Shown: positions 1 to 36,295 of the stretch, piece after piece
Layout of the letters: each line of letters opens with the position of its first letter
How positions within the stretch are numbered: the stretch's first letter is position 1
DNA from: a phage
Direction: 5' to 3' (one strand)
DNA: 39,474 nucleotides
Sequence record: PZ618369.1
Position numbers and translations under genes: made by a program
Notes under the pieces: generated by a model
Database searches by the model: none
The model's input: only the letters and a program-made list of their open reading frames with translations
What the model was told of the DNA's origin: nothing

Positions 1-159
1 ATGGCAAAGACCAAAGCTGTGCTTAAAGCTCTGGTGACCAACCGAGCTACATACAGGTTTCTTGCTGCTGTTCTACTTGCTGCTGGCGTTACTGCTGGAA
101 GTAAGTGGGTCGGGTGGGTCGAGACTCTCGTATGCTCTCTGGTCTCTCAGTGTAATTAA
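1..159 (+). CDS. small hydrophobic protein at the gene 19.5 position (52 aa)
   Basis: ATG at window position 1, translated by hand to a 52-aa ORF with a central hydrophobic segment (LAAVLLAAGVTAG); an AGGAGG ribosome-binding site sits at 39460-39465 if the window is circular; position after gene 19 matches T7 gene 19.5. Confidence 0.4.
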   Translation: MAKTKAVLKALVTNRATYRFLAAVLLAAGVTAGSKWVGWVETLVCSLVSQCN

Positions 160-192
160 TGCAATCATGGTAACGATTCATGAGCGGAAGAC

Positions 193-235
193 CTAAGGTC
201 AGTACGTGGATAAAGACTCACTCTACTGACCTTAG
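193..235. repeat. perfect 12-bp inverted repeat (CTAAGGTCAGTA / TACTGACCTTAG), 19-nt spacer
   Basis: read directly from sequence. Confidence 0.7.
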
Positions 236-352
236 CTACTGTAGTCAAGGACTTTAGGTAACACCATTCAGGCTAACCTATGGTCTACCTACTGATTGGT
301 TCACTGGTCGTCATCCGATGGTCTCAGACCTACGGTCCTTGACCTACAGTAG
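236..352. repeat. imperfect 17/18-bp inverted repeat (CTACTGTAGTCAAGGAC ... GTCCTTGACCTACAGTAG) enclosing about 80 nt
   Basis: read directly from sequence; arms at 236-252 and 335-352. Confidence 0.55.
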
Positions 353-405
353 CTGGGTCCTTAAGGTAGGGACGATGAGTTTTGGACCAAAAGTTTGAGA
401 CCACA

Positions 406-600
406 TCTCACAGTTCAAGAACCTCAAGTCTCCCCATAGGCCTCCTTCAGTCCAGACCAAAGGCCATACCCCAGTCTATCATAAGGTTGGACAGATGGTC
501 AATACTTCAGGTCAACGATAGGTCATGACGATAGGTGGTGGTGGAGACGATAGGTAGGGACTATGGGTCTGTCTCTGAGTCTCCATCTGTATAACCATAA
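406..600. repeat. putative genome left terminus and direct terminal repeat (extent uncertain)
   Basis: TCTCACAGTT...CCCCATAGG at 406 onward resembles the T7 left-end sequence TCTCACAGTGTACGG...CCCCCATAGGGGG as I recall it; followed by CTCTGAGTCTCCATCTGT similar to the end of the T7 terminal repeat. Confidence 0.3.
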
Positions 601-740
601 GTCACTAACCATAGGTCCTACAACCATAGGTCCTACAACCATAGGTCCTACAACCATAGGTCCTACAACCTACAGTCTCAACCATAAGACACCAACACCT
701 ACAGTCATAGACCTACAGTTAATAGACACACAGCTATAGA
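585..740. repeat. tandem short-repeat array: four perfect 15-bp copies of CCATAGGTCCTACAA at 609-668 with degenerate flanking copies
   Basis: read directly from sequence; analogous to the short-repeat array after the left terminal repeat of T7. Confidence 0.8.
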
Positions 741-830
741 CTTAAGGTCAAAGACATGATAGTCAAAGACTATATCCTCTTACACCATGAGGCCGACGAT
801 AGCTTAATCAATATTATTTCAAATTACCTA

Positions 831-861
831 TTGACTATAGGTCTAGACTATGGCCTAATAG
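831..861 (+). promoter_or_regulatory. possible sigma70 early promoter (A1-like), weak -10
   Basis: TTGACT at 831-836; candidate -10 CTAATA/TAATAG 17-19 bp downstream. Confidence 0.3.
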
Positions 862-971
862 CTTCCGTCAACACGACACGGCAACAACCGGATAGTGAAG
901 ACGCCGGGTCATCCCGGTTAAGTAGACAGCCTGATAAGTCATACGAACAACAGGCAGATGACAGAAAGTAG

Positions 972-1008
972 TTGACAAGATGTACCGACTTAAAGTAGTA
1001 TGTACCAC
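972..1008 (+). promoter_or_regulatory. sigma70 early promoter (T7 A3-like)
   Basis: TTGACA at 972-977, TAGTAT 18 bp downstream, followed by GTACCACAT as in T7 A3 as recalled. Confidence 0.55.
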
Positions 1009-1123
1009 ATCGAAACAACAGTGATGACCAACACTGAAATGGTCTACCTGAAGTCCTCTGACTGAAGGGAATGCTCTTTAACAATCTGGATAACTCTTAA
1101 TGTGCGCCGATAGCGACTAACTA

Positions 1124-1178
1124 CAGGGTCTTTGAGTCTACCGCGAGACGGGCTTGACTTGAGCGACTGAAGGCCCTG
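1124..1178 (+). promoter_or_regulatory. imperfect hairpin, candidate RNase III processing site (R0.3-like)
   Basis: arms CAGGGTCTTTGAGTC and GACTGAAGGCCCTG; preceded by GCTCTTTAACAATCTGG, identical to the T7 sequence upstream of gene 0.3 as recalled. Confidence 0.4.
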
Positions 1179-2108: not shown

Positions 2109-2843
2109 ATGAACGCACACGATAAAGTAATCATGAACAACCTTATGTCTCAGCTTCACGCTATCATCTGCGAGGAGTGCTACAAGATTGAAGCCTCTTG
2201 CGCTGGCATAGCAGGTCAGCCACGCTGGAGAGCCTTTGAGATACTGGCACGGGAACATGGTTACAAGCTGTTAGGCTTAGGGCATTTCGCTGCCGCCTTT
2301 GAGCATGAGGACCTTCCGGGATATGCAATCAAGGTGGGCTTTAAGAAGGACGACTCAGGCGCTGCATATGCGGCATTCTGCCGAGAGAATGAGGGAATGG
2401 CTGGACTTCCAGTCATCCATCTTGTCAAGCGATTTAGCAGGGCGTACATGGTGGCTATGGATAAGTACCGCTCACTGGATGAAATTGGCGGGGACTACTG
2501 CCGGGACGGTGAGACCTATGAACAGCGAGTCTTAAACGTGTCGTGGCGTGTAGTAAACGCGGTGATAGACCACTGCGAGATGCCGTCAACCGCGCTGTAT
2601 TGGTGGCTGGATAGTGCGGCCCGCTCTGAGTTCGCTTACTTAGAGGCCCAGTACATTAAAGACCTTGCGCAGACTGCACGTAAGATTCATACGTTCTTCT
2701 ACGGTCTGGCATCGTTCGACACGCACCGGGCTAACGTGATGGTAGATAACAGCGGGCGCTTGATAATCACTGACCCAGTGTCTTGGACTCAGGCAGACCA
2801 TCAAGACGAGTTGCAAGGCATACTCAACACAATAGCTGAGTGA
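2109..2843 (+). CDS. 0.7: serine/threonine protein kinase gp0.7, kinase domain only (244 aa)
   Basis: GLGHFAAAFEHEDLPGYAIKVGFKKDDSGAAYAAFCR matches recalled T7 gp0.7 (GNGHFSAAYSH...[20 protein letters not shown]); about 115 aa shorter than T7 gp0.7. Confidence 0.85.
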   Translation: MNAHDKVIMNNLMSQLHAIICEECYKIEASCAGIAGQPRWRAFEILAREHGYKLLGLGHFAAAFEHEDLPGYAIKVGFKKDDSGAAYAAFCRENEGMAGLPVIHLVKRFSRAYMVAMDKYRSLDEIGGDYCRDGETYEQRVLNVSWRVVNAVIDHCEMPSTALYWWLDSAARSEFAYLEAQYIKDLAQTARKIHTFFYGLASFDTHRANVMVDNSGRLIITDPVSWTQADHQDELQGILNTIAE

Positions 2844-2909
2844 TAGACGAGAGGCCACTACATCTAGTGGTCTCAAAGATTATTTCTCACAACATATAGG
2901 AGCGTCGCC

Positions 2910-3071
2910 ATGAAAGCATTGTTAACTTACATCACAATCATCGCACTCTGGGTTACTGCTGTGGCTACCGATGGCAATGCTGGTCACTGGGGCTGGCTGG
3001 CGGTCGACATCATTATGTCGCCTGTAGGAGTGGTGCGCGGCCTGCTGATTCTCTTCGGGCTTGCGGGATGA
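2910..3071 (+). CDS. small membrane protein (53 aa, two predicted TM segments)
   Basis: hand translation MKALLTYITIIALWVTAVATDG...VVRGLLILFGLAG; RBS TAGGAG upstream; stop overlaps next start (ATGA). Confidence 0.45.
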   Translation: MKALLTYITIIALWVTAVATDGNAGHWGWLAVDIIMSPVGVVRGLLILFGLAG

Positions 3072-3268
3072 TTATGGGCTGGGCACTTCTGGTCATCGGC
3101 TACGGGTTAATACTCGCAGTCCTCACGAAAGACATCGTGAAAGCACGTAAAGTCTACCGCTTCCAGTATGTATCGCTGGGGCGCTGGACTGTACGTCAAC
3201 CTAACGGACGATTCATGCGCAACCTCGCGAACGTCTGGGATATAGCAACTCTTGGGAGCAAACTGTAA
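3068..3268 (+). CDS. small membrane protein (66 aa, N-terminal TM segment)
   Basis: ORF track; N-terminus MIMGWALLVIGYGLILAVL is hydrophobic; translationally coupled to both neighbours. Confidence 0.5.
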   Translation: MIMGWALLVIGYGLILAVLTKDIVKARKVYRFQYVSLGRWTVRQPNGRFMRNLANVWDIATLGSKL

Positions 3269-3594
3269 TGAACAAGGCATACGGGATTAATCTGGTACAC
3301 TCTATGGACGCAGACCTTAATCTGCTTTCAGCACTGGCTACGGGCTACCGTCACGGGACCTCAAGTCACACCATTCGTCAACAGCAGGAGCGCGACCGGG
3401 TGCTACAAGTAAGACTCCGGGCTGAGGGCCATAAGTCCGAGCTGATGTGTCTGGCGTATGGTGGACGACCAATCACCGACGATGGTAAACTTCTGGTCTC
3501 AGGCTGGAAGGCGATAGACCAACGGTCAACCATCAAGCACACGACTCGCGGTGACTTCAGTCATCTTCACGCTAACCCTCTGATATGCAAGTAA
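3268..3594 (+). CDS. hypothetical protein (108 aa)
   Basis: ORF track; start overlaps preceding stop (TAATG); no recognisable motif. Confidence 0.55.
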   Translation: MNKAYGINLVHSMDADLNLLSALATGYRHGTSSHTIRQQQERDRVLQVRLRAEGHKSELMCLAYGGRPITDDGKLLVSGWKAIDQRSTIKHTTRGDFSHLHANPLICK

Positions 3595-6660: not shown

Positions 6661-6664
6661 CCCT

Positions 6665-7144
6665 ATGTTTGGTAAGTCAAAACTCAAAGCACAAATCAAA
6701 GAGTTGAGCATGAAGGCGGCATACTTGGAGCGAGTAGTAATAGTCATGGATAAGGACAACGAGAGGCTGAAGGTTAAACTTGCTGAATCAGAGCGTAAGC
6801 GCCTAACACCACCAGCGGCTGTATTTAGCAAGCGTATGGTAGGCATCAAGTTCAAGGCACTGTTCAACGGGATGTACCAACCGACTGAGTTCAAGACTGG
6901 ACCGGGTAACTGCGGTAAGAACGTTAAGCACTTCACAACATCGAAGACTGAGCGCACTATTACCATTCACCAGCACCACGTAGACGGGTCTCAGAAAGAC
7001 TTTGAGTATCGACTGAGCGACATCGACGGTCGAATCCAGTATGACTACGAGCTGGTTAAGGTCTATGGTGAGGAGGCTGAACAGGAACGTATAAACCAAG
7101 TCTTCCGCAACAGACAGCGCTTACACCCTAAACTATCACTATAG
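6665..7144 (+). CDS. hypothetical protein (159 aa), heptad-like charged N-terminus (possible coiled coil)
   Basis: ORF track; stop codon TAG lies inside the following promoter (CACTATAGG). Confidence 0.55.
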   Translation: MFGKSKLKAQIKELSMKAAYLERVVIVMDKDNERLKVKLAESERKRLTPPAAVFSKRMVGIKFKALFNGMYQPTEFKTGPGNCGKNVKHFTTSKTERTITIHQHHVDGSQKDFEYRLSDIDGRIQYDYELVKVYGEEAEQERINQVFRNRQRLHPKLSL

Positions 7145-7400: not shown

Positions 7401-7402
7401 AC

Positions 7403-7690
7403 ATGAGCATGTTCTCAAGAGCGCATAGCGGCAACCTGAACACTCTTCGTACAGCCATCCACAACTGGCAGACCGAGACGGACTACAATGCAGAGGTCAG
7501 CACTTGGTTTGACCAAGTGATGCACAGGACTTGTATCAAAGCTGTAATAGTCCACGTTCACACACGAGAGGTCCTCATTGAGAAGGACTTCACGGAGTAC
7601 CCGAATATCCACGACGAAGATGTGCAGACCGTAGCGGTTGCCACTTGGTTTAACAAACAGTTCAACGACTACACTGGTCGATTCCTTTAA
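7403..7690 (+). CDS. 1.2: gp1.2-like protein (putative host dGTPase inhibitor)
   Basis: position immediately before the ligase gene; N-terminal HSGNL resembles T7 gp1.2 YSGNL (weak). Confidence 0.6.
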   Translation: MSMFSRAHSGNLNTLRTAIHNWQTETDYNAEVSTWFDQVMHRTCIKAVIVHVHTREVLIEKDFTEYPNIHDEDVQTVAVATWFNKQFNDYTGRFL

Positions 7691-7707
7691 TTCTGGAGAC
7701 ATTAACG

Positions 7708-8793
7708 ATGATAACTATTAAAACTAACCCGCACCGCGCTGTAGATTACTCTGAGTCTGGCGTTAAGAAGGCTCTGGAAGCTGCCGGGTCGCTGGAAGCT
7801 GAAGTGAAGTACGATGGTGTCCGGTTGAATCTTCTGGTCTTCCCTACTGGTGAGACTCAATGGTTGAGTCGTGAGTCTAAACCTCTCCCAGCTCTTGAGT
7901 GGCTGTCAGTCCTTACCAACATCGACAACATCGTTGATGACCAGCAAAAAGCTAGCGACTGGCGGTGGTTCCTTAAGCAGGCGGGCTACGAAGGCATGGG
8001 CCTGATGATTGATGGTGAGGTCATGGTTCCTGCAACCGACTTCAACACTTCCTCAGGTCTAGTCCGTACCATGTGGTCAGACACTAAGAACTACGCTTGG
8101 AATGGCAACCCAGATGCTGACATCGACACCAAGAAGAAGCATAAGGTCCCTTTCCATCTGGCAACCGACCACATCCGCGTGGTTGTCTACGGTATCGTTG
8201 ACCTTAACGTCATCAACGACCCGAAAGCCGAAGGTCCTATCCATAGCGTCACACGCCTGAAGGCCGAAGCTATCGTCCCTCTCCTCCAGAAATACTTCCC
8301 GGAAATCGACTGGGTTCTGTCTGAGTCACACACGGTCTATGACCTTGAGTCGCTCAACTCCCTGTACGAAGAGAAGCGTCTGGAAGGACACGAGGGTCTG
8401 GTAGTCAAGGACCCACTGGGTAAATACAAGCGTGGCAAGAAGTCAGGAATGTGGAAGATGAAGCCTGAGGAGACCATCGACGGGACCGTATGTGGCCTCG
8501 TGTGGGGGACTCCTGGTAAGGCCAACGAAGGCAAGGTCATTGGCTTTGAGGTACTGCTGGAGGACGGCATGGTAGTGAATGCGTGCGGACTGACTGAGGA
8601 GCAGAAGGATGAGTTCACCGCTTCCGTTCTAAACTGGCGTAAGGGGTTATGCTCAAGCACTATTTATGGAAACCCGTTTGCGGGTAATCAGGTGGAAGTC
8701 CTATTCATGGAGCGCTTCCCTGATGGCTCCCTTCGTCATCCCAGCTTCAAGTGCTGGCGTGGAACGGAAGACAATCCAACCGTTAAGAGCTAA
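7708..8793 (+). CDS. 1.3: ATP-dependent DNA ligase (361 aa)
   Basis: KYDGVR adenylation motif; EGHEGLVVKDP, KRGKKSGMWKMKPE and DGSLRHPSF match recalled T7 ligase. Confidence 0.95.
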   Translation: MITIKTNPHRAVDYSESGVKKALEAAGSLEAEVKYDGVRLNLLVFPTGETQWLSRESKPLPALEWLSVLTNIDNIVDDQQKASDWRWFLKQAGYEGMGLMIDGEVMVPATDFNTSSGLVRTMWSDTKNYAWNGNPDADIDTKKKHKVPFHLATDHIRVVVYGIVDLNVINDPKAEGPIHSVTRLKAEAIVPLLQKYFPEIDWVLSESHTVYDLESLNSLYEEKRLEGHEGLVVKDPLGKYKRGKKSGMWKMKPEETIDGTVCGLVWGTPGKANEGKVIGFEVLLEDGMVVNACGLTEEQKDEFTASVLNWRKGLCSSTIYGNPFAGNQVEVLFMERFPDGSLRHPSFKCWRGTEDNPTVKS

Positions 8794-9693: not shown

Positions 9694-9848
9694 CTGAGGT
9701 TGAGAAGAAATACATCGTGGAGCTTGAGGGTCGAGTTCAGTCCTTCGAGGTTCCGGTGTACGCAAAGTCTCTTGAAGAGGCTACCCTGAAGTCCCAAGAG
9801 TATGAGGACGCTGGGTTTGTGGTCGGACGGATTCGTCCTGAGACCTAA
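9690..9848 (+). CDS. 2: gp2-like host RNA polymerase inhibitor
   Basis: [15 protein letters not shown]...GFVVGRIRP matches recalled T7 gp2 (HSFEVPIYAETLDEA...GFEVTRVRP); GTG start 8 nt after AAGGAG, alternative ATG at 9672. Confidence 0.7.
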
Positions 9849-9866
9849 ACTATCACTGTAGGGCAG
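9846..9866 (+). promoter_or_regulatory. phage RNAP promoter variant (TAAACTATCACTGTAGGG)
   Basis: A to G change at -3; phi2.5 position. Confidence 0.55.
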
Positions 9867-9905: not shown

Positions 9906-10604
9906 ATGGCTAAAGAGCAACTGAAGACTTTCACCACTCCGGTAGCTGGTATCGTTGAGCCTTACGCATGGCTAAACAAAGCAGACACCAAGTTTAACGA
10001 TCGTGGTGAGCACAAAGTCAACCTGACATTCGACCTGAGCAACCCGAAGGTCCGTAAGATGATTGATGTCTTACAGAAGATTCATGACGATGCGTATGCG
10101 AAAGCACTCGCAGACCACGAGAAGAACCCACCTCAGGTTCAGCGTGGCAAGAAGCCTATTGAACCACGAGAAGGCGACATGCCGTGGATTGAGAATGGTG
10201 ATGGTACTGTTACCCTGAAGTTTAAATGCTTTGCGTCTTACCTGAAGGATGGTAAGTCAGAGCCTATCGTATTACGGTTCTACGACACCGATGCTAAGTT
10301 AATCCGTGACGTCCCGAATATTGGTGCTGGCTCCAAACTGAAGGTCAAGTTTAAAGTCCTGCCGTTCAAGTGGAACGCTGCTACTGGTGCAAGCGTTAAG
10401 CTGCAGCTTGAGTCCTGCCTTCTGGTAGAGCTGAAGGAATGGAAAGGTGATGGTGCTGGTGGAGATGGTGGCTGGGGTGATGATGAAGACCTAGGCACTG
10501 GATACAAAGCGTCAACCGATGGTGACTTCGGTGACGATGACTTCGGTGACGATGGTTCCGAAGGCAGTGACGACTCCAACTCTGGTGGCGATTACGACTT
10601 CTAA
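9906..10604 (+). CDS. 2.5: single-stranded DNA-binding protein gp2.5 (232 aa)
   Basis: RGKKPIEPREGDMPW, GAGSKLKVKFKVLPFKWNAATGASVKLQLES and acidic C-terminus ending DF match recalled T7 gp2.5. Confidence 0.92.
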   Translation: MAKEQLKTFTTPVAGIVEPYAWLNKADTKFNDRGEHKVNLTFDLSNPKVRKMIDVLQKIHDDAYAKALADHEKNPPQVQRGKKPIEPREGDMPWIENGDGTVTLKFKCFASYLKDGKSEPIVLRFYDTDAKLIRDVPNIGAGSKLKVKFKVLPFKWNAATGASVKLQLESCLLVELKEWKGDGAGGDGGWGDDEDLGTGYKASTDGDFGDDDFGDDGSEGSDDSNSGGDYDF

Positions 10605-11056
10605 TGGCCCAATGGTCTGCAAAACGGGGGCACTCTGTGGGTGCCTACCGCTCTGGACTTGAAGCCAAGAACCAGCAGTGGCTGGAACAGAACGGCGTCA
10701 AAGCGGAGTACGAAAGCCATTATATCAACTATGTGATTCCGGCTTCCGACCACAAGTACACACCAGATTTTATCCTTCCTAACGGTATCATCGTGGAGAC
10801 CAAAGGTATCTTCGACAGCGATGACCGTAAGAAGCACCTTCTGGTACGAGAACAGCACCCAGAGTTAGACATCCGGTTCGTGTTCTCAAGTTCACGCTCC
10901 AAGCTATACAAAGGGTCCCCGACCACGTATGGCGCATGGTGCGAAAAGAACGGCTTTAAGTTTGCCGATAAGTTCATCCCGGTTGAGTGGCTGCGAGAGG
11001 CGACTGTACGTCTGCCTTCCGGTATCCTCATCCCCAAGAAAGGAGTTAAGAAATGA
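10604..11056 (+). CDS. 3: endonuclease I (Holliday junction resolvase)
   Basis: YTPDFILPNGIIVETKGIFDSDDRKKHLLVREQHPELDIRFVFSSSRSKLYKGSPTTYG closely matches recalled T7 gp3. Confidence 0.92.
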   Translation: MAQWSAKRGHSVGAYRSGLEAKNQQWLEQNGVKAEYESHYINYVIPASDHKYTPDFILPNGIIVETKGIFDSDDRKKHLLVREQHPELDIRFVFSSSRSKLYKGSPTTYGAWCEKNGFKFADKFIPVEWLREATVRLPSGILIPKKGVKK

Positions 11057-11505
11057 CTCGTAAAGCAATCATTGTCGACCTTACCAATGGCGGCGCTTAC
11101 ACTGATAACTTCAAGGAGGGCCAAGAGGTCTTCGTTAAGTTCTGCCGTAAGTCCCTATTCACACGAGATGGGGACCTGTGGCATGTGTCACATGACGGAG
11201 TTAAGTGGAGTGATACAATGTACGGTAAGCGCCTGAAGTTCGTGGACAGCCCTGCAAAACCTGAGGTAATCCTAGCTTCGAGCGTACAGCCTGTGACTGT
11301 GAAGCGTGAAGTCCTTACCATCGACAAGATTGGTGTAGGCCAGACGTTCATCGTCCACGGTAAACCTGAGGAAGTTTACGTTAAGATTAGCAACTCACAC
11401 GTCTTCAACCATAAGCGTCTCCAGATGCACACCACGGACGCACAACGCTTCACCCAGCACCTGAATCTGGTGGTCGTAGAATTGGTGGTGTACAATGGTA
11501 AGTAA
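11053..11505 (+). CDS. hypothetical protein (150 aa) inserted between genes 3 and 3.5
   Basis: ORF track; ATGA overlap with gene 3 and an 11-nt overlap with gene 3.5; no counterpart in T7 at this position. Confidence 0.6.
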   Translation: MTRKAIIVDLTNGGAYTDNFKEGQEVFVKFCRKSLFTRDGDLWHVSHDGVKWSDTMYGKRLKFVDSPAKPEVILASSVQPVTVKREVLTIDKIGVGQTFIVHGKPEEVYVKISNSHVFNHKRLQMHTTDAQRFTQHLNLVVVELVVYNGK

Positions 11506-11953
11506 GGTACAGTTCAACCCACGGTCCCGGACTGACGCTATCTTCGTTCACTGTTCGGCTACCAAGCCAGAGATGAACATCGGGGTAGAGACCATCCGTA
11601 TGTGGCACAAGCAGCAGGGCTGGCTGGACGTAGGCTACCACTTTATCATCAAGCGCGATGGTACTGTGGAAGAGGGTCGCCCGGTCAATGTCGTAGGGTC
11701 ACACGTTAAGGACTGGAACTCCAAGTCCGTAGGCGTCTGCCTTGTAGGTGGAATCAACGCTAAGGGTAAGTTTGAAGCTAACTTCACTCCAGCCCAGATG
11801 AACTCCCTGCGTAACAAGCTGGCTGACCTGAAGGCCCTGTATCCTCAGGCAGAAATCAAAGCACACCATGACGTAGCACCTAAGGCGTGTCCAAGTTTCG
11901 ACTTGCAACGCTGGCTGTCTACCAATGAACTGGTCACTTCCGACCATGGATAA
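11495..11953 (+). CDS. 3.5: N-acetylmuramoyl-L-alanine amidase (T7 lysozyme, RNAP inhibitor)
   Basis: TDAIFVHCSATKP...WLDVGYHFIIKRDGTVEEGR...HHDVAPKACPSFDL matches recalled T7 gp3.5. Confidence 0.95.
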   Translation: MVSKVQFNPRSRTDAIFVHCSATKPEMNIGVETIRMWHKQQGWLDVGYHFIIKRDGTVEEGRPVNVVGSHVKDWNSKSVGVCLVGGINAKGKFEANFTPAQMNSLRNKLADLKALYPQAEIKAHHDVAPKACPSFDLQRWLSTNELVTSDHG

Positions 11954-12052: not shown

Positions 12053-12268
12053 GTGATTAAACTTATTGAATTTCTTGGTCGTCTGGTGGTGCGTGGCTAT
12101 CGTCGTGCTGCGGTTATGGAACGAAAGGTAGCAGAGAAGGCTGCTGAAGGTGCGGCTGATGCTGCTGCTCTGGCTGACAAGCTGACCATCGAGTCACTGG
12201 AAGCTGGTATGAAGGCACGTCAAGCCGACACCAAAGCTGACCAGTTGGCTCAGTTCTTCAAAGCCTAA
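12053..12268 (+). CDS. hypothetical protein (71 aa, GTG start), Ala-rich C-terminal half
   Basis: ORF track; RBS AAGGAG upstream of GTG; stop lies inside the following promoter. Confidence 0.45.
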   Translation: MIKLIEFLGRLVVRGYRRAAVMERKVAEKAAEGAADAAALADKLTIESLEAGMKARQADTKADQLAQFFKA

Positions 12269-12285
12269 ACTATCACCTTAGGGAT
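12266..12285 (+). promoter_or_regulatory. phage RNAP promoter variant (TAAACTATCACCTTAGGGA)
   Basis: two changes at -4/-3; upstream of gene 4. Confidence 0.5.
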
Positions 12286-14048: not shown

Positions 14049-14213
14049 TTGCTAAGAAAACTTAAAGCTCGCTACCATCGGTTCATGTACAAATGGTGGA
14101 GCGATGAAGCAGCCTGCCTGTCTAACATTCTGGGAGACCAAAGGTTCGACTCTAAGGCATGGAAGAAAGCTAACCGGAAGTTTATGTATCACTTCTTGCG
14201 TACAGACTTCTAG
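14049..14213 (+). CDS. hypothetical small basic protein (gene 4.3-4.7 region), start uncertain
   Basis: in frame with ORF track 14016..14213; TTG 6 nt after AAGGAGG proposed as start. Confidence 0.35.
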   Translation: MLRKLKARYHRFMYKWWSDEAACLSNILGDQRFDSKAWKKANRKFMYHFLRTDF

Positions 14214-14216
14214 GTC

Positions 14217-14258
14217 TAGACTCAAGGTCATTCACATCGAGTGGCCTTTATGATTAGA
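14217..14258 (+). promoter_or_regulatory. conserved hairpin element, second copy (candidate RNase III site)
   Basis: TAGACTCAAGGTCATTCACATCGAGTGGCCTTTATGATTAGACT. Confidence 0.5.
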
Positions 14259-14277
14259 CTAAAGCGGAGGATTAACC

Positions 14278-16449
14278 ATGTTTGACCTTAAGAGTATCTG
14301 GGGTTCTGACATCGAGACCAACGGTCTCCTTGATACAGTCTCCCAGTTCCACTGTGGGGTCCTGATTAACGCCGAGTCGAATGAGACCCTTAAGTACGGG
14401 GTAGCTCCGATGGTCGGTATCGTCGGTGGCTTCAAAGAGTATGTTCATAAAGTGGAAGAGATTGCCGCATCACCTGATGGTATGCTTGTCTTCCATAACG
14501 GTATCAACTATGACGTCCCGGCTATAGACAAGCTGAAGCGTCTGTACTTTGGGAAACGTTTTAACTTCCCGAAACACAAGATGATTGATACCTTGGTGCT
14601 GGGCCGCTTGATGTATCCAAACATTAAGTTCTCAGACATAGGCGCGGTGAAAGCTGGTCATCTGTCACCTAATATGATGGGACGTCAGTCTCTTGAGGCT
14701 TGGGGTTATCGTCTCGGTGAGATGAAAGGTGAGTACAAACACGATTACGTTGCCAAGTGCAAGGCTGAAGGTATCGAATATAAGGCCGGGGACGAATGGC
14801 TGTTCCCGTCTCAGGAGATGCTGGACTATAACGTTCAAGACGTTGTGGTCACACTGGCGTTGTTCAAGAAGTTCCTGACTGACAAGTATTACTTCCAGTC
14901 TGAACAGTTCGCTTTCGACCAGATTTATGCGTTGCGTCTGGAACATGATGCTGCGTGGACCTGTGCGAAGATGGAACGTAACGGCTATCCGATGAACACC
15001 GAGATGGTCGAAGGCTTATATCGTGAACTCACCGTCAAACGTGCAGAGCTGCTGGACAAGCTGCGTTCGACTTTCGGTAGCTGGTACGCACCAAAGGGAG
15101 GCAAGGAGTTCTTCAAGCACCCCCGGACAGGCAAGGACCTTCCGAAGTATCCGAGAGTCGTGTATCCTAAGGTAGGGTCAGTATTCAAGAAGCCGAAGAA
15201 CAAAGCTCAACGCTTAGGTCTGGAGCCTTGCGAGTTCGACTCACGAGACATGATGGAGGGAGCACCGTTCACACCTATCACTTACGTTGAGTTCAATCCG
15301 GGGAGCGGAGACCACTTAGCGAAAGTCTTGATGGAGCGTGGCTGGGAGCCTGTAGACTTCACTGACACCGGGAAACCTGTAGTCGATGACGAGACGTTAG
15401 AACACGTTAAGCTACCAGACGCAGAGGCTCAGGCTTGCGTAGAGCTAGTTCGTGAGTATCTGGTAGTCCAGAAGCGCATCGGTCAGGCGGCTGAAGGTAA
15501 GAACGCATGGTTGAAACTTGTAGGTACAGACGGACGTATGCACGGTTCAATCAACCCATGCGGGGCAGTAACCGGACGTGCGACTCACAGTTCACCAAAC
15601 ATGGCTCAGGTCCCTGCTAACGGTGCTCCGTATGGTGAGATTTGCCGTGGAGCTTTCGGTGCAGCTTGGAACAAGACTAACGGTGAGCCAGACCCTTGGA
15701 TTCAGGTTGGTGTGGATGCTTCAGGTCTTGAGCTGCGCTGTCTGGGGAACAGAGCGGCTCCGTTTGATGGTGGAGACTATGCGAAGACTGTGGTCGAAGG
15801 TGACATCCACTGGGCCAACGCAGTAAACGCTGGGTTAGCACCTAACGTCCCACGCGATAAGTCTAACCATGACCATGATGCTTTCCGTAACAACGCTAAG
15901 ACGTTCATCTATGCGTTCCTGTATGGTGCAGGGGCCGCTAAGATTGGACTGATAGTTGGCGGTGGTAAGAAGGAAGGTGCTGCCCTGATGAAGAAATTCA
16001 TTGAGGGTACACCAGCTATCAAGGATCTGCGAGAGGCTGTGCAGAACACGCTCATCTCAGAGTCCAAATGGGTAGACGGTGAGAACATAGTGAAGTGGAA
16101 ACGTCGATGGCTGAAAGGTCTGGACGGTCGCCGCATTCACATCCGGTCGCCACACTCAGCACTTAACGCTCTACTTCAGGGTGATGGTGCGGTTGTCTGT
16201 AAGCACTGGATTGTCGAGACCGAGCGTATGCTCGAAGAGGCAGGGTATGTCCACGGCTGGGAAGGAGACTTCGCGTACATGGCTTGGGTTCACGATGAGC
16301 TACAGATTGCGTGTCGTACTCAGGAGATTGCCGAAGAAGTCGTCAAGATTGCTCAACTTGCTATGCGTAAGGTGGGTGAGTTCTATAACTTTAAATGTGT
16401 CCTTGATACCGAAGGTAAGATTGGACCAACGTGGAAGGAGTGTCACTAA
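14278..16449 (+). CDS. 5: DNA polymerase (723 aa)
   Basis: exo motif DIETNGL, YDVPA, pol motifs DASGLELR, KTFIYAFLYGAG and MAWVHDE; collinear with recalled T7 gp5. Confidence 0.97.
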   Translation: MFDLKSIWGSDIETNGLLDTVSQFHCGVLINAESNETLKYGVAPMVGIVGGFKEYVHKVEEIAASPDGMLVFHNGINYDVPAIDKLKRLYFGKRFNFPKHKMIDTLVLGRLMYPNIKFSDIGAVKAGHLSPNMMGRQSLEAWGYRLGEMKGEYKHDYVAKCKAEGIEYKAGDEWLFPSQEMLDYNVQDVVVTLALFKKFLTDKYYFQSEQFAFDQIYALRLEHDAAWTCAKMERNGYPMNTEMVEGLYRELTVKRAELLDKLRSTFGSWYAPKGGKEFFKHPRTGKDLPKYPRVVYPKVGSVFKKPKNKAQRLGLEPCEFDSRDMMEGAPFTPITYVEFNPGSGDHLAKVLMERGWEPVDFTDTGKPVVDDETLEHVKLPDAEAQACVELVREYLVVQKRIGQAAEGKNAWLKLVGTDGRMHGSINPCGAVTGRATHSSPNMAQVPANGAPYGEICRGAFGAAWNKTNGEPDPWIQVGVDASGLELRCLGNRAAPFDGGDYAKTVVEGDIHWANAVNAGLAPNVPRDKSNHDHDAFRNNAKTFIYAFLYGAGAAKIGLIVGGGKKEGAALMKKFIEGTPAIKDLREAVQNTLISESKWVDGENIVKWKRRWLKGLDGRRIHIRSPHSALNALLQGDGAVVCKHWIVETERMLEEAGYVHGWEGDFAYMAWVHDELQIACRTQEIAEEVVKIAQLAMRKVGEFYNFKCVLDTEGKIGPTWKECH

Positions 16450-16637
16450 TGGGCCATTATGACATCGCATACGAAGAGTTCGCTGAAGAAACACGCAGGC
16501 GTGAAGAGCTACGTCAGTCGCGGTGCGAACATCCAGATTGGGTACTTGTCTACTGCACGCAGGATGGCAAGCCAAAAGTAACTCAGTGCAGACTGTGTGG
16601 AAAGACCAATCACATTGAATCAAAAGGAGAAATCTAA
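16449..16637 (+). CDS. small Cys-containing protein (62 aa), possible zinc ribbon
   Basis: ATG overlaps gene 5 stop; AAGGAG RBS; contains CEH...C...CRLCGK. Confidence 0.45.
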   Translation: MGHYDIAYEEFAEETRRREELRQSRCEHPDWVLVYCTQDGKPKVTQCRLCGKTNHIESKGEI

Positions 16638-16927
16638 TGGCTATGACCAAACGTATGCGAGTTTCGTTCTCGCTGGGTGCTGTGTTGTCAACTGAAAACG
16701 TGGAGAACTTCAAGAAGACTCTCTGCGAGCTGAGCCGTAAGGTCCTCAACGGAGAGAAGACCACTGGTTTTGAGCGTAAGGCGGTAGAGGTTGGTGTGAC
16801 TGAAGGCCTGGAAGCTGTAGTCGAACTGGTTTTCAAGAAAGGCATCGTAGATGGGCTGAAAGAAGACCTGAGCAGTTACGCTGACCAGACGAGCTTTGGT
16901 AACTTCCGGGTGGAGTTCAAGCAATGA
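16637..16927 (+). CDS. 5.5: gp5.5-like protein (H-NS-binding in T7)
   Basis: N-terminal MAMTKRMRVSF matches recalled T7 gp5.5 MAMTKKFKVSF; size 96 aa. Confidence 0.8.
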   Translation: MAMTKRMRVSFSLGAVLSTENVENFKKTLCELSRKVLNGEKTTGFERKAVEVGVTEGLEAVVELVFKKGIVDGLKEDLSSYADQTSFGNFRVEFKQ

Positions 16928-23579: not shown

Positions 23580-24146
23580 ATGGCTCAATACATTCCACTG
23601 AATGCTAACGATGACTTAGATGCCATCAACGATATGTTAGCCGCTATCGGTGAACCAGCAGTCCTACAGCTTGACGAGGGGAACGCTGACGTCTCGAACG
23701 CTCTACGTATCCTGCATCGCGTCAATCGTCAGGTCCAAGCTAAAGGCTGGAACTTTAACATCAACGAAGCAGCTGTCCTGACACCTGACATCCAAGACAA
23801 TAGGATTCGATTCTTGCCGTCATACCTTCGTGTAATGACCGCTGGGGCCACCAGCTACTACAGCAACATGGGTGGGTACCTGTACGACCTGTCCACCCAG
23901 TCAACCACTTTCACCGACCCTATCACGGTAGAGCTTGTGGAGATGAAGCCATTCTCCGAGATGCCTGTGGTCTTCAGGGACTACATCGTAACTAAAGCTA
24001 GCCGTGAGTTCAACGCTAAGTTCTTCGGTAGCCCAGAGTCAGAGCTATACCTTCGTGAGCAGGAAGCAGAACTCTATCAGCAGGTTATGGAGTACGAGAT
24101 GGACACTGGTCGCTACAACATGATGTCTGACATCGGGAGGGACTAA
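23580..24146 (+). CDS. 11: tail tubular protein A
   Basis: synteny and size (188 aa); first gene after the terminator. Confidence 0.85.
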   Translation: MAQYIPLNANDDLDAINDMLAAIGEPAVLQLDEGNADVSNALRILHRVNRQVQAKGWNFNINEAAVLTPDIQDNRIRFLPSYLRVMTAGATSYYSNMGGYLYDLSTQSTTFTDPITVELVEMKPFSEMPVVFRDYIVTKASREFNAKFFGSPESELYLREQEAELYQQVMEYEMDTGRYNMMSDIGRD

Positions 24147-24373
24147 TGGCTAGTCACAACCTGAAGATTCACCGCCAGCACTTTGGTCCGGTACAGCTAG
24201 GTCTAAAGACAGCAGAGCTGAGACTTAACGACCGGGACTTTAAGGTTGGCGATTGGCTTATCCTGAATGAATGGGACAACGGGTATACTGGACAACAGGT
24301 AGCACGTAAGGTTGTCCACATTGCTGACGTTGGTGACATCGCTGAGGGATACGTTCTAATGAGTATGATTTAA
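24146..24373 (+). CDS. ASCH/PUA-like (DUF3850-like) small protein (75 aa) inserted between genes 11 and 12
   Basis: HNLKIHRQHFGPVQLGLKTAELRLNDRDFKVGDWLILNEWD...YTG fits my recollection of the DUF3850 signature; ATG overlaps the gene 11 stop. Confidence 0.55.
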   Translation: MASHNLKIHRQHFGPVQLGLKTAELRLNDRDFKVGDWLILNEWDNGYTGQQVARKVVHIADVGDIAEGYVLMSMI

Positions 24374-34108: not shown

Positions 34109-36295
34109 ATGTCCACGATTACACAATTCCCTGCAGGAAACACTCAGTACAGGATTGAGTTCGACTACCTATCCAGAACGTTTGTTGTTGTTACGCTGGT
34201 GAATAGCTCTAACCCTACCCTGAACCGTGTACTGGAAGTTGGTCGAGATTACCGATTCCTTAATCCAACGATGATTGAGATGTTGGTTGACCAATCAGGT
34301 TTCGACATCGTTCGTATTCACCGTCAGACTGGAACTGACTTAGTGGTAGACTTCAGAAATGGCTCAGTGTTGACAGCCAGTGACCTGACCAATGCAGAGC
34401 TTCAGGCTATCCATATTGCAGAAGAGGGCAGAGACCAAACGGTTGACTTAGCGAAGGAATATGCTGATGCTGCTGGTACCTCTGCCGGCAACGCTAAGGA
34501 TAGCGAGGACGAAGCACGACGAATCGCTGAGGATATCAAGGCATCTGGTCGAATTGGCTATATTACCCGTCGCTCCTTCGAGAAAGGCTTCAACGTTATA
34601 ACATGGAACGAGGTACTGCTATGGGAAGAGGATGGTGAGTATTACCGTTGGGATGGTACGCTTCCAAAGAACGTTCCTGCTGGTTCAACTCCTGAAACTT
34701 CCGGTGGGATTGGGGTAGGTGCGTGGGTTCTCGTAGGCGATGCTTCACTTCGTATCGCACTAGCTTCTGAAGTAGGGGCATCAATGGTGTCCCGTAACGG
34801 CTCACCCCTAGGCAGAATCATTCGTGCATCACTCTTCGAATACCTTACCGAATCAGATCAGCGAGCATTACTTACTACTTCTGGAGCAGTAGTTGCAGCG
34901 GATTATGCGTTAAAAGCAGCTATAGCTGCTGGAGTTATGGTCCTTGATATACCACGGAACCTAGGGATTATTGAACTTGGTAGAGATCCAGCGACGCTTC
35001 CATTGGGGTTCTCGCTTATAGGATGGGGCTGCCGTCGACCTTATACTGTATCAGATGACAGTAGCTTCCTTAATTGCGGGGTAGTTATCCGCGTAGCAGC
35101 TGGGGCAAGTTTTCCTTTTTATTCAACTGGTCGTCATGTGTTCCGGGATATTGTTTTTGACGGGCGGGATAAAACAACGTATCTTTTTTATTCCACAGAT
35201 AGGTATGCTGAGTTCAACGGTACTCGACTAGAGGGGTGCGGAATTTACCGTTTTGCTATTGGTATTGGTTGGAATAAGGGAGGATCAGCAAGATACATCA
35301 CAACAGTGAAAGCACACTTTTGTTCCCTATCTGGAAATGGGGACGCAGTTAAAAATTTAATAGACTCTATGATGATTGGTTGCACAATCAATGCCAATGA
35401 CCGAGGCGTAGCTCTTGTCGGCGGGGCAAATAGTAACTTTTTCGGAGGATGCCGGAACGAATGGAACGCTGGTGATAACTGGTATGCGCATGAATCAATA
35501 GAAAACCAGATTTCAGGTGAACTGTGCGACAGGGCTGGGCGAGGCGGGGTAGTTGCTGGCAAGGATTCGTCATGGATTGTAACCGGAGTTGTCGTCGCTC
35601 GCAGTGGTGCTAATCAACCAATGAATGATAACTACTCAGCAAACTTTGTTATTATTGATAACGGTAAAATCGTAATCTCTGGGGTGAGAACCAGAAACGG
35701 AGCTAACGAGTGGGGTCAGGGTGGGACAAATTCTCCATCGTTTAACGTATCGGTTCTCGGTTCTGGTAATGGGACACTCCTGGTATCTGGAAGTGATATG
35801 ACCGGTTTTGTTACTTCGGTAATTAACCAGAAGGCTCCTACATTAAATAAAGCTATAACCGGAAATCTCGGTATGGATGATGATGTAAATGTTGGAATGT
35901 CTCAGGTTATTAAAGGAAGACGGATTATTGGTTCACAGTCATCGGGTAGATTGCAAGACACTGTGGGAGCAACGTTATCATTCACTAAGCCCAATATTGC
36001 GCAAGATTTATATGCTACATACGTCACCAGAGCCATATTGATTGAGTGTAGAATTGGCAATACTGCACAAGGTGATTATATAAAAATACCTATAGGGGTA
36101 AGGCACGAAAACAATTTCTATCTTGATGTCATTACCAGTGGAATTGTCGCAAGCTCTGGAAGGATTGGTCTTTCAGGAACTGGGGTTACTGTTAGCTTAT
36201 CTATTGATAGTTCAACAGGTGACATCTCAGTTACGTTAACTAGCGTTGATGGGTTGGTGAGAGATGTTAATGTCTCTTTACTGCCATCAATTTAA
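34109..36295 (+). CDS. 17: tail fibre/tailspike: T7 gp17-like N-terminal adaptor fused to a beta-helix-like C-terminal domain (putative depolymerase)
   Basis: N-terminal ~150 aa resemble recalled T7 gp17 ([37 protein letters not shown]); the remainder is Gly/Asn/Ser/Val-rich with repetitive short strands and has visibly lower GC. Confidence 0.88.

Follow-up and report, generated by a model that had tools for sequence, protein, structure and literature searches.

Genes 3 and 3.5, which encode endonuclease I and lysozyme, abut in phage T7 with nothing between them (10257-10706 and 10706-11161 in the T7 record). In the window, by which we mean the whole stretch of phage DNA analyzed here (39,474 nucleotides [nt] of record PZ618369.1), a further open reading frame (ORF) separates the two. 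A first-pass annotation took it for an uncharacterized gene inserted into the DNA-metabolism operon. What is this ORF, and what might it do there? The ORF list and the sequence confirm it exactly as described: 150 aa, 11053..11505 on the + strand, with an ATG start, flanked by the genes for endonuclease I and amidase/lysozyme. The features of the locus, which we call gene 3.2, are the following:

9844..9862, + strand: phage-RNAP promoter (phi2.5 type), heading the unit 2.5-3-3.2-3.5-3.7; exact match to the consensus CCTAAACTATCACYKTAGG
10604..11056, + strand: gene 3, endonuclease I, the upstream neighbor; a 150-aa ORF, annotated in K1F, phiYIO1-1 and others
11040..11045, + strand: strong Shine-Dalgarno (SD) sequence AAGGAG of gene 3.2, 7 nt 5' of the ATG, read from the sequence
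11053..11505, + strand: gene 3.2 coding sequence, 150 aa plus stop, from the ORF, PHROG matches and synteny with K1F
11053..11273, + strand: variable N-terminal cassette, codons 1 to ~74, without blastn similarity to SP7 or K1F
11260..11298, + strand: Pro-rich linker, aa 70-82, with the consensus KPQVLPASSVPPVT and here KPEVILASSVQPVT, from conservation and pLDDT
11299..11502, + strand: constant C-terminal domain, aa 83-150, a predicted six-stranded SH3-like beta domain
11389..11451, + strand: family signature S113-N-S-H-V-F-N119...Q124-M-H126.T128...R132-F133, invariant in the Providencia-phage branch
11495..11505, + strand: 11 nt shared by the end of gene 3.2 and the start of gene 3.5, ATGGTAAGTAA, an overlap also present in K1F, phiYIO1-1, Dev2 and EcoDS1
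11495..11953, + strand: gene 3.5, N-acetylmuramoyl-L-alanine amidase/lysozyme, 152 aa, the downstream neighbor, from ORF and annotation
12264..12282, + strand: next phage promoter, upstream of gene 4, which ends the gene 3.2 unit; consensus match

By megablast, the window is the genome of a Kayfunavirus (K1F-like Studiervirinae), with a backbone (12300-34000; 21.7 kb) ~97% identical to Escherichia phage vB_EcoP_SP7 and Klebsiella phage SEA1f. Profile searches matched the 150-aa protein to PHROG 16385 (E 1.8e-48, aa 47-150), the two-domain form of gp3.2, and to PHROG 15211 (E 1.5e-40, aa 79-150), its 74-aa form; neither family has an assigned function. K1F (NC_007636) has an annotated gene 3.2, encoding a gp3.2 of 157 aa, at the same position and with the same overlaps. 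EcoDS1, Dev2, and phiYIO1-1 likewise carry the gene between genes 3 and 3.5 with both overlaps, annotated as gp3.2 in EcoDS1 and Dev2. A tblastn search with gp3.2 recovered about 220 GenBank phage records with the gene in this position, no fewer than the 183 records that share at least 80% of the window backbone. Hence, gene 3.2 is part of the normal Kayfunavirus layout. Judged by profile match, position and overlaps between genes 3 and 3.5, and the C-terminal signature, all of which we found here, the ORF is orthologous to gene 3.2 of K1F, a gene already catalogued and not a new insertion. Of the first-pass description, the part that stands is an uncharacterized coding gene, absent from T7 and located in the DNA-metabolism operon. 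The insertion does not stand, as the order gene 3 - 3.2 - 3.5 is standard in the genus.

The proteins most similar to that of the window come from metagenomes (94% and 91% identity), and a word-indexed search of 5.8 billion proteins returned 255 relatives, essentially all on ~40-kb contigs. When all 1.84 billion representatives were searched with HMMER, only 16 clusters matched the gp3.2 profile. One of these, P0128 (1872 aa, 12 matching stretches), was rejected as a low-complexity tandem-repeat protein, because only linker-region positions of the profile were matched.

We then considered how the gene is embedded in its transcription unit. Both of the overlaps initially reported are borne out by the sequence: the gene 3.2 ATG (11053-11055) overlaps the endonuclease I stop codon TGA (11054-11056) as ATGA, and the gene 3.2 stop codon TAA (11503-11505) lies downstream of the gene 3.5 ATG at 11495, so that the two genes share 11 nt. 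Using a promoter consensus derived from the annotated promoters of EcoDS1, we detected 11 phage-RNAP promoters in the window, every one of them on the + strand, compared with 0.01 expected by chance. Gene 3.2 lies between the promoters at 9844-9862 and 12264-12282, which places genes 2.5, 3, 3.2, 3.5, and 3.7 in one class II unit. Three minus-strand ORFs that overlap gene 3.2 (10729..11124, 11097..11351, and 11395..11517) were dismissed as chance, since no phage promoter was found on that strand and the region beneath these ORFs is unconserved between alleles.

Gene 3.2 is a genuine protein-coding gene, as purifying selection, codon usage, SD and coupling signals, and its place in a single unit all indicate. 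Across 28 related loci, the dN/dS ratio (omega) of the C-terminal part (aa 88-150) was 0.00-0.19, with dS up to 1.4, in the same range as that of endonuclease I and amidase (0.03-0.22). A CAI-like codon score based on the phage's large genes was 0.72 in the gene 3.2 frame versus 0.46 and 0.55 in the other frames. The coding potential assumed at the outset is therefore confirmed. We also considered whether the extreme conservation of the C-terminal domain reflects an overlapping gene or some DNA or RNA element within the coding sequence. We rejected this explanation because synonymous sites diverge freely, there is no Rfam match and no phage promoter inside gene 3.2, and sigma-70-like promoter and terminator-like sites at the gene are at or below chance.

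These results bear on the simplest alternative, namely that the ORF encodes no functional protein and is a coupling spacer, a leftover of mobile DNA, or a product of chance. Its absence from T7, the HNH gene beside it in one relative (see below), and the lack of any function, domain, or literature in our searches would fit such an origin. However, the low omega at considerable dS effectively refutes it, and the in-frame codon usage, a 17-residue signature that is invariant at ~30% identity, confident fold predictions for both halves of the protein, and the absence of an HNH or mobility motif also speak against it. We regard this explanation as barely credible.

Conservation is distributed very unevenly along the protein. 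When 120 cluster representatives were aligned, conservation was 97-100% in columns 70-150, and columns 1-69 were highly variable. Many relatives (Dev2, SH3/SH4, CLB_P1, and others) encode a 74-aa gp3.2 that consists of residues ~79-150 only, and a few encode forms of ~220 aa with two N-terminal modules. A divergent branch, from Providencia phages, has ~30% identity, and its gene directly follows endonuclease I. An alignment that includes this branch (alignment A2) has 17 invariant positions: G96, F99, Y109, S113-N-S-H-V-F-N119, Q124-M-H126, T128, R132-F133, and L137. The window protein has all 17, in the pattern G..F...Y...SNSHVFN....QMH.T...RF...L. AlphaFold2 left the C-terminal domain unresolved when run with our first alignment; with a more diverse alignment, it predicted six strands with a core pLDDT of 82-90, in a model built on only 32 sequences (A2) and with a pTM of 0.59. 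A structure search with this domain returned SH3-like folds. With a pI of 9.35, and of 9.5 for the C-terminal domain taken alone, the protein is basic. On the evidence of these alignments, the C-terminal domain forms the family's constant core, and many relatives make do with it alone as a protein of 74 aa.

A constant domain in a fixed position raises the possibility that gp3.2 is a regulator or partner of one of its neighbors. It might temper the toxicity of endonuclease I, or modulate the interaction of lysozyme with RNA polymerase and so affect the switch by which transcription gives way to replication and packaging, with translational coupling fixing the stoichiometry. The ATGA and the 11-nt coupling are preserved in the loci examined, and the 74-aa forms are still ATGA-coupled to gene 3. 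The position directly after endonuclease I in the Providencia phages and a degree of conservation that equals that of endonuclease I and amidase point the same way. Endonuclease I and lysozyme of T7 and T3, however, function without gp3.2, and linkage to gene 3.5 is not obligatory, given the genes interposed in two relatives (described below). Such a partnership also leaves the variable N-terminal domain without an obvious role. We consider both versions of this explanation, including the proposed effects on the switch and on stoichiometry, quite improbable.

The N-terminal half behaves differently from the C-terminal half. In a blastn comparison of the window with SP7 (word size 11), identity is 96.4% up to 11050, similarity is absent from 11051-11273, and identity is 94.7% from 11274 on. 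In the comparison with K1F, similarity is absent at 11057-11275. The flanks of these gaps are 94-96% identical. From the positions of these gaps, the breakpoints coincide with the start codon and the domain boundary. We distinguished at least five classes of N-terminal allele, plus the form without an N-terminal domain. Alleles A, B, and C showed no relationship to one another or to the C-terminal domain (hhalign probability <=1%), and each N-terminal allele was found only in the gene 3.2 slot. The window carries allele A, present in about 11 GenBank phages (8 of Enterobacter and 3 of Escherichia) at <=78% identity; the K1F-type allele B is present in 56. We asked whether the cassette has a compositionally foreign origin and rejected this, as its GC content, GC3, and codon usage resemble those of the neighboring genes; it therefore derives from the same gene pool.

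Synonymous divergence gives an indication of how the cassette moved. Between the window and other copies of allele A, dS was 1.0-1.9 for the N-terminal domain and 0.35-0.8 for the C-terminal domain; for endonuclease I and amidase, dS against close relatives such as K1F and EcoDS1 was 0.10-0.22. Since dS of the N-terminal domain exceeds that of both the C-terminal domain and the flanking genes, allele A is an old lineage that was moved by recombination. In close allele-A pairs, omega was 0.33-0.89 in the N-terminal domain versus 0.04-0.16 in the C-terminal domain, a comparison of coding sequences that suggests relaxed or diversifying change. At larger divergence, omega of the N-terminal domain was 0.06-0.17, which gives no indication that positive selection was sustained. 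Variability within this domain peaks in the predicted RT-like (aa 8-24) and n-Src-like (aa 33-41) loops (p = 0.02), which is weak evidence because loops outvary strands in most proteins. Unrelated alleles, a two-cassette form, and a form with no cassette all occur on the same constant domain. These comparisons show that the N-terminal domain (aa 1 to ~69) is a recombinational cassette carried on the constant C-terminal domain.

The slot itself has received other genes. PRF-SP4 has an HNH homing endonuclease gene between gp3.2 and gp3.5 (HNH_3 match, 3.1e-14), and Providencia phage PSTCR2 has two further ORFs between the gp3.2 gene and the endolysin. By comparison with these two genomes, the gene 3.2 slot is recombination-active. 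Cassette replacement could instead be driven by a homing endonuclease through co-conversion, and the HNH gene that adjoins gp3.2 in PRF-SP4 is consistent with this route.

We next examined what the two domains might be. AlphaFold2 predicted the N-terminal domain (aa 1-67) as a five-stranded SH3-like barrel with a pLDDT of ~90. A Foldseek search with this model gave SH3 domains as the top matches, all weak (best E 0.12). A search of BFVD returned only the family itself, followed by uncharacterized phage proteins of ~75 aa. The columns of the linker (aa 70-82) are 79-100% conserved, and the segment is predicted to be disordered (pLDDT <50); the window protein has four atypical substitutions relative to the consensus (Q71E, L73I, P74L, and P79Q). 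We thus have a predicted architecture, drawn from these models, in which gp3.2 consists of two small SH3-like beta-barrels joined by a Pro-rich linker. Both domains start their first strand with 'VGxxY/F', which led us to consider the N-terminal domain as a paralog of the C-terminal domain. We did not retain this internal duplication, which is unsupported in that the hhalign probability was <=1% for all pairs.

At the sequence level, the initial description of the protein as having no recognizable motif was correct. Pfam gave no family at E up to 10 for gp3.2 and nothing above noise for the 32 sequences of A2, NCBIfam gave no match, and sequence searches of the PDB (phmmer and two profiles) found nothing or only noise. 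PADLOC, searched up to E 10, gave no defense family. Neither Pfam nor PHROG revealed an HNH or His-Me finger motif in gp3.2; as a positive control, the neighboring ORF of PRF-SP4 was detected as HNH_3. A HAS1 helicase match (E 0.41) and Imm11 and NAC matches (E ~0.06) were dismissed as chance. Nor did we find a homolog of assigned function among T7-group proteins: the homologs recovered have none. Full texts in the literature and a search with the signature motif yielded no functional data on gp3.2, a preprint on an accessory-gene screen contained no trace of it in its text or 39 supplementary files, and we found no description of a bipartite, cassette-exchanging gp3.2 in the literature searched.

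The predicted fold and the basic pI allow a further alternative, in which gp3.2 would be a small nucleic-acid-binding accessory factor of phage DNA metabolism. An SH3-type barrel might be used as in Sso7d, integrase C-terminal domains, or Tudor domains, and the protein might work with gp2.5 and endonuclease I. The process served might be recombination, replication, or breakdown of host DNA, with a polar patch of invariant residues (S, N, S, H, N, Q, H, T, R) contacting DNA or RNA. The charge of the protein, the polar patch, and a position among DNA-metabolism genes are in keeping with this proposal, but it leaves the exchange of N-terminal cassettes unexplained. We judge the proposal as a whole to be unlikely, and give no greater weight to the suggested type of barrel and partners or to the suggested processes and contacts.

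Which other parts of the genome behave like the N-terminal cassette? Besides gene 3.2, only four loci in the window are without DNA similarity to SP7:

1217-1669: SAMase-like protein in the gene 0.3 slot
2109-2843: gp0.7-type kinase
7403-7690: gp1.2 dGTPase inhibitor
16637-16927: gp5.5 H-NS inhibitor

Gene 0.3, gp0.7, gp1.2, and gp5.5 have classical host-takeover or counter-defense functions in T7-group phages. Alleles of gp1.2 have been linked to PifA sensitivity (BASEL paper, PMC11990801). By analogy with these loci, the behavior of the N-terminal domain as a cassette indirectly favors a role in host interaction or in defense evasion, the latter suggested by the first-pass annotation as an alternative to nucleic-acid metabolism.

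Based on these considerations, we tentatively propose that gp3.2 may be a modular adaptor or inhibitor that acts in host interaction, host takeover, or counter-defense; its partners and role are our inference. Gene 3.2 shares the phi2.5 promoter with genes 2.5, 3, 3.5, and 3.7, and it is translationally coupled to endonuclease I on its upstream side and to amidase on its downstream side. The constant C-terminal domain would dock onto a partner that is itself highly conserved, whether a core protein of the phage or a conserved protein of the host, and the exchangeable N-terminal domain would provide specificity for a variable host factor. The protein would act in the DNA-metabolism phase of infection.

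What does this add to the genus? As found, gene 3.2 is an ordinary and known orphan gene of Kayfunaviruses, of which the window holds a rare N-terminal allele; the added interest is modest and lies in the sharply bipartite, cassette-exchanging architecture. Kayfunaviruses (K1F and other capsule- or O-antigen-specific phages) are widely used as therapeutic and engineering chassis. If the adaptor role is true, gp3.2 would be a well-defined and cheap candidate for a new determinant of host range that acts after adsorption, because near-identical isolates differ at only a few loci, of which gene 3.2 is one and the rest are host-takeover or counter-defense genes. The natural series of alleles (no N-terminal domain, at least five alleles, and double-cassette forms) amounts to a ready-made experimental design.

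We close by comparing gp3.2 with known systems, the nearest being its own orthologs. The window protein and gp3.2 of K1F, EcoDS1, and Dev2 belong to the same family, occupy the same slot between genes 3 and 3.5 with overlaps on both sides, and share a C-terminal domain that is 78-95% identical, with the signature SNSHVFN..QMHTT..RF invariant. They differ in that the window protein has another, rarer N-terminal allele and a linker with unusual substitutions.

HNH homing endonucleases commonly fill intergenic slots in T7-like phages (for example, T7 genes 2.8, 3.8, and 5.3). Like them, gene 3.2 is an extra small class II ORF, missing from T7 at this site, and in PRF-SP4 an HNH gene occupies the same slot. 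In contrast to them, gp3.2 has no HNH or His-Me finger motif, is nearly universal in the genus, and is under strong purifying selection.

With regard to fold, both domains resemble SH3-like barrels (eukaryotic SH3; FeoA; EF-P domain I/KOW; the DtxR C-terminal domain; and the Tudor-type CarD and UvrD CTD) in predicted topology and size, with five to six short strands in a small barrel. Family models of the SH3 clan, FeoA, KOW, and Tudor gave no profile-level match to gp3.2.

The gene 0.3 Ocr/SAMase slot, gp0.7, gp1.2, and gp5.5 resemble the N-terminal domain in losing similarity to SP7 and, like gp3.2, are small, non-structural, and variable within the genus. They have no homology to gp3.2, and the likeness is one of behavior alone. 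Unlike these loci, gp3.2 exchanges only half of its gene, and the half that stays ranks with the most conserved sequences in the region. We put forward a broader proposal as a speculation of rather low probability: gp3.2 might found a new class of modular phage counter-defense or host-takeover proteins. In such a class, which is equally conjectural in its parts, an invariant SH3-like effector or docking domain of 70 aa would bind one conserved hub, and plug-in N-terminal domains, recombined at fixed breakpoints, would retarget it to factors of host immunity or physiology. Such proteins would be a cytoplasmic analogue of the design of tail fibers, with their constant anchor and variable tip.

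The proline-rich linker of gp3.2, the product encoded between endonuclease I (gene 3) and the amidase/lysozyme (gene 3.5), spans positions 11260-11298 of the window and departs at four residues from a consensus that is 79-98% conserved: Q71E, L73I, P74L, and P79Q. Three of them (Q71E, L73I, and P74L) lie no further downstream than the recombination breakpoint, and P79Q falls within the conserved part. We compared the gp3.2 slot with those of related phages, for which two features are relevant:

L005 (Salmonella phage PRF-SP4), 1916-2365: HNH homing endonuclease, 149 aa (Pfam HNH_3, E 3.1e-14)
L004 (Providencia phage PSTCR2), within 2330-3362: gp3.2 homolog of 152 aa, divergent (~30% identity), immediately following endonuclease I

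In PRF-SP4, the HNH insertion separates gp3.2 from the endolysin, making this junction a site at which mobile endonuclease genes land. The gene order of PSTCR2 differs from that of Kayfunavirus, because an unmatched 117-aa ORF and a gp3.7-like 79-aa ORF follow the gp3.2 homolog and precede the endolysin. In Enterobacter phage vB_VIPECLMC06 (record L033), a tRNA-Thr is annotated at 2425-2503, flanked by gene 3.7 and the primase/helicase gene, an unusual feature for a T7-like phage.

Alignment of the window with K1F by blastn matched window 1-583 to the right end of K1F (39048-39699) and window 406-1141 to its left end (1-738). Relative to K1F, the window therefore appears to be circularly permuted, and the match of ~406-583 to both K1F ends suggests a terminal repeat or concatemer junction within the window.

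Comparison with K1F and with SP7 (Escherichia phage vB_EcoP_SP7) involved the following features to the right of gene 3.2:

16637-16927: gp5.5-like H-NS inhibitor (phrog_1452)
24146-24373: 75-aa ORF flanked by tail tubular genes 11 and 12
34109-36295: tailspike gene, 728 aa

The 75-aa ORF is shared with SP7 (SP7_0037, annotated as hypothetical) and is missing from K1F, with no similarity at 24149-24373. The tailspike gene is 97% identical to that of SP7. Past ~34745 it diverges from the K1F endosialidase, and the N-terminal anchor alone is conserved; this is the usual constant-anchor/variable-tip pattern. The gp5.5-like gene has 94% DNA identity to the K1F gene, and the SP7 gene at this position has no similarity to it. 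SP7 also carries an extra HNH endonuclease (SP7 14172-14441), which the window does not.

Toward the left of the window lie five further features:

1217-1669: gene 0.3-slot protein, 150 aa (phrog_2226 "SAM-dependent methyltransferase", E 5.7e-46)
1669-1896: 75-aa ORF without known function, directly after the gene 0.3-slot protein
2109-2843: gp0.7-type protein kinase, 244 aa (phrog_15752, E 1.7e-109)
6665-7144: 159-aa ORF in the gene 1.1-1.2 region (phrog_8103, an unknown-function family)
7403-7690: gp1.2 dGTPase-inhibitor homolog (phrog_2949, E 1.1e-28)

By blastn against K1F, the phrog_8103 ORF has no counterpart (gap at 6663-7126). The gp1.2 allele differs from those of both SP7 and K1F, with blastn similarity absent at 7404-7713 and 7401-7707, respectively; PifA sensitivity has been linked to gp1.2 alleles (BASEL paper, PMC11990801). 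At the position of the gp0.7-type kinase, blastn found no DNA similarity in either SP7 or K1F, both of which have small ORFs there instead. The gene 0.3 slot likewise lacks blastn similarity to SP7. Whereas K1F has an Ocr-like gene in this slot, the window encodes the phrog_2226-type protein, whose family is probably that of the T3-type SAMase; the slot content looks like an alternative anti-restriction cassette.
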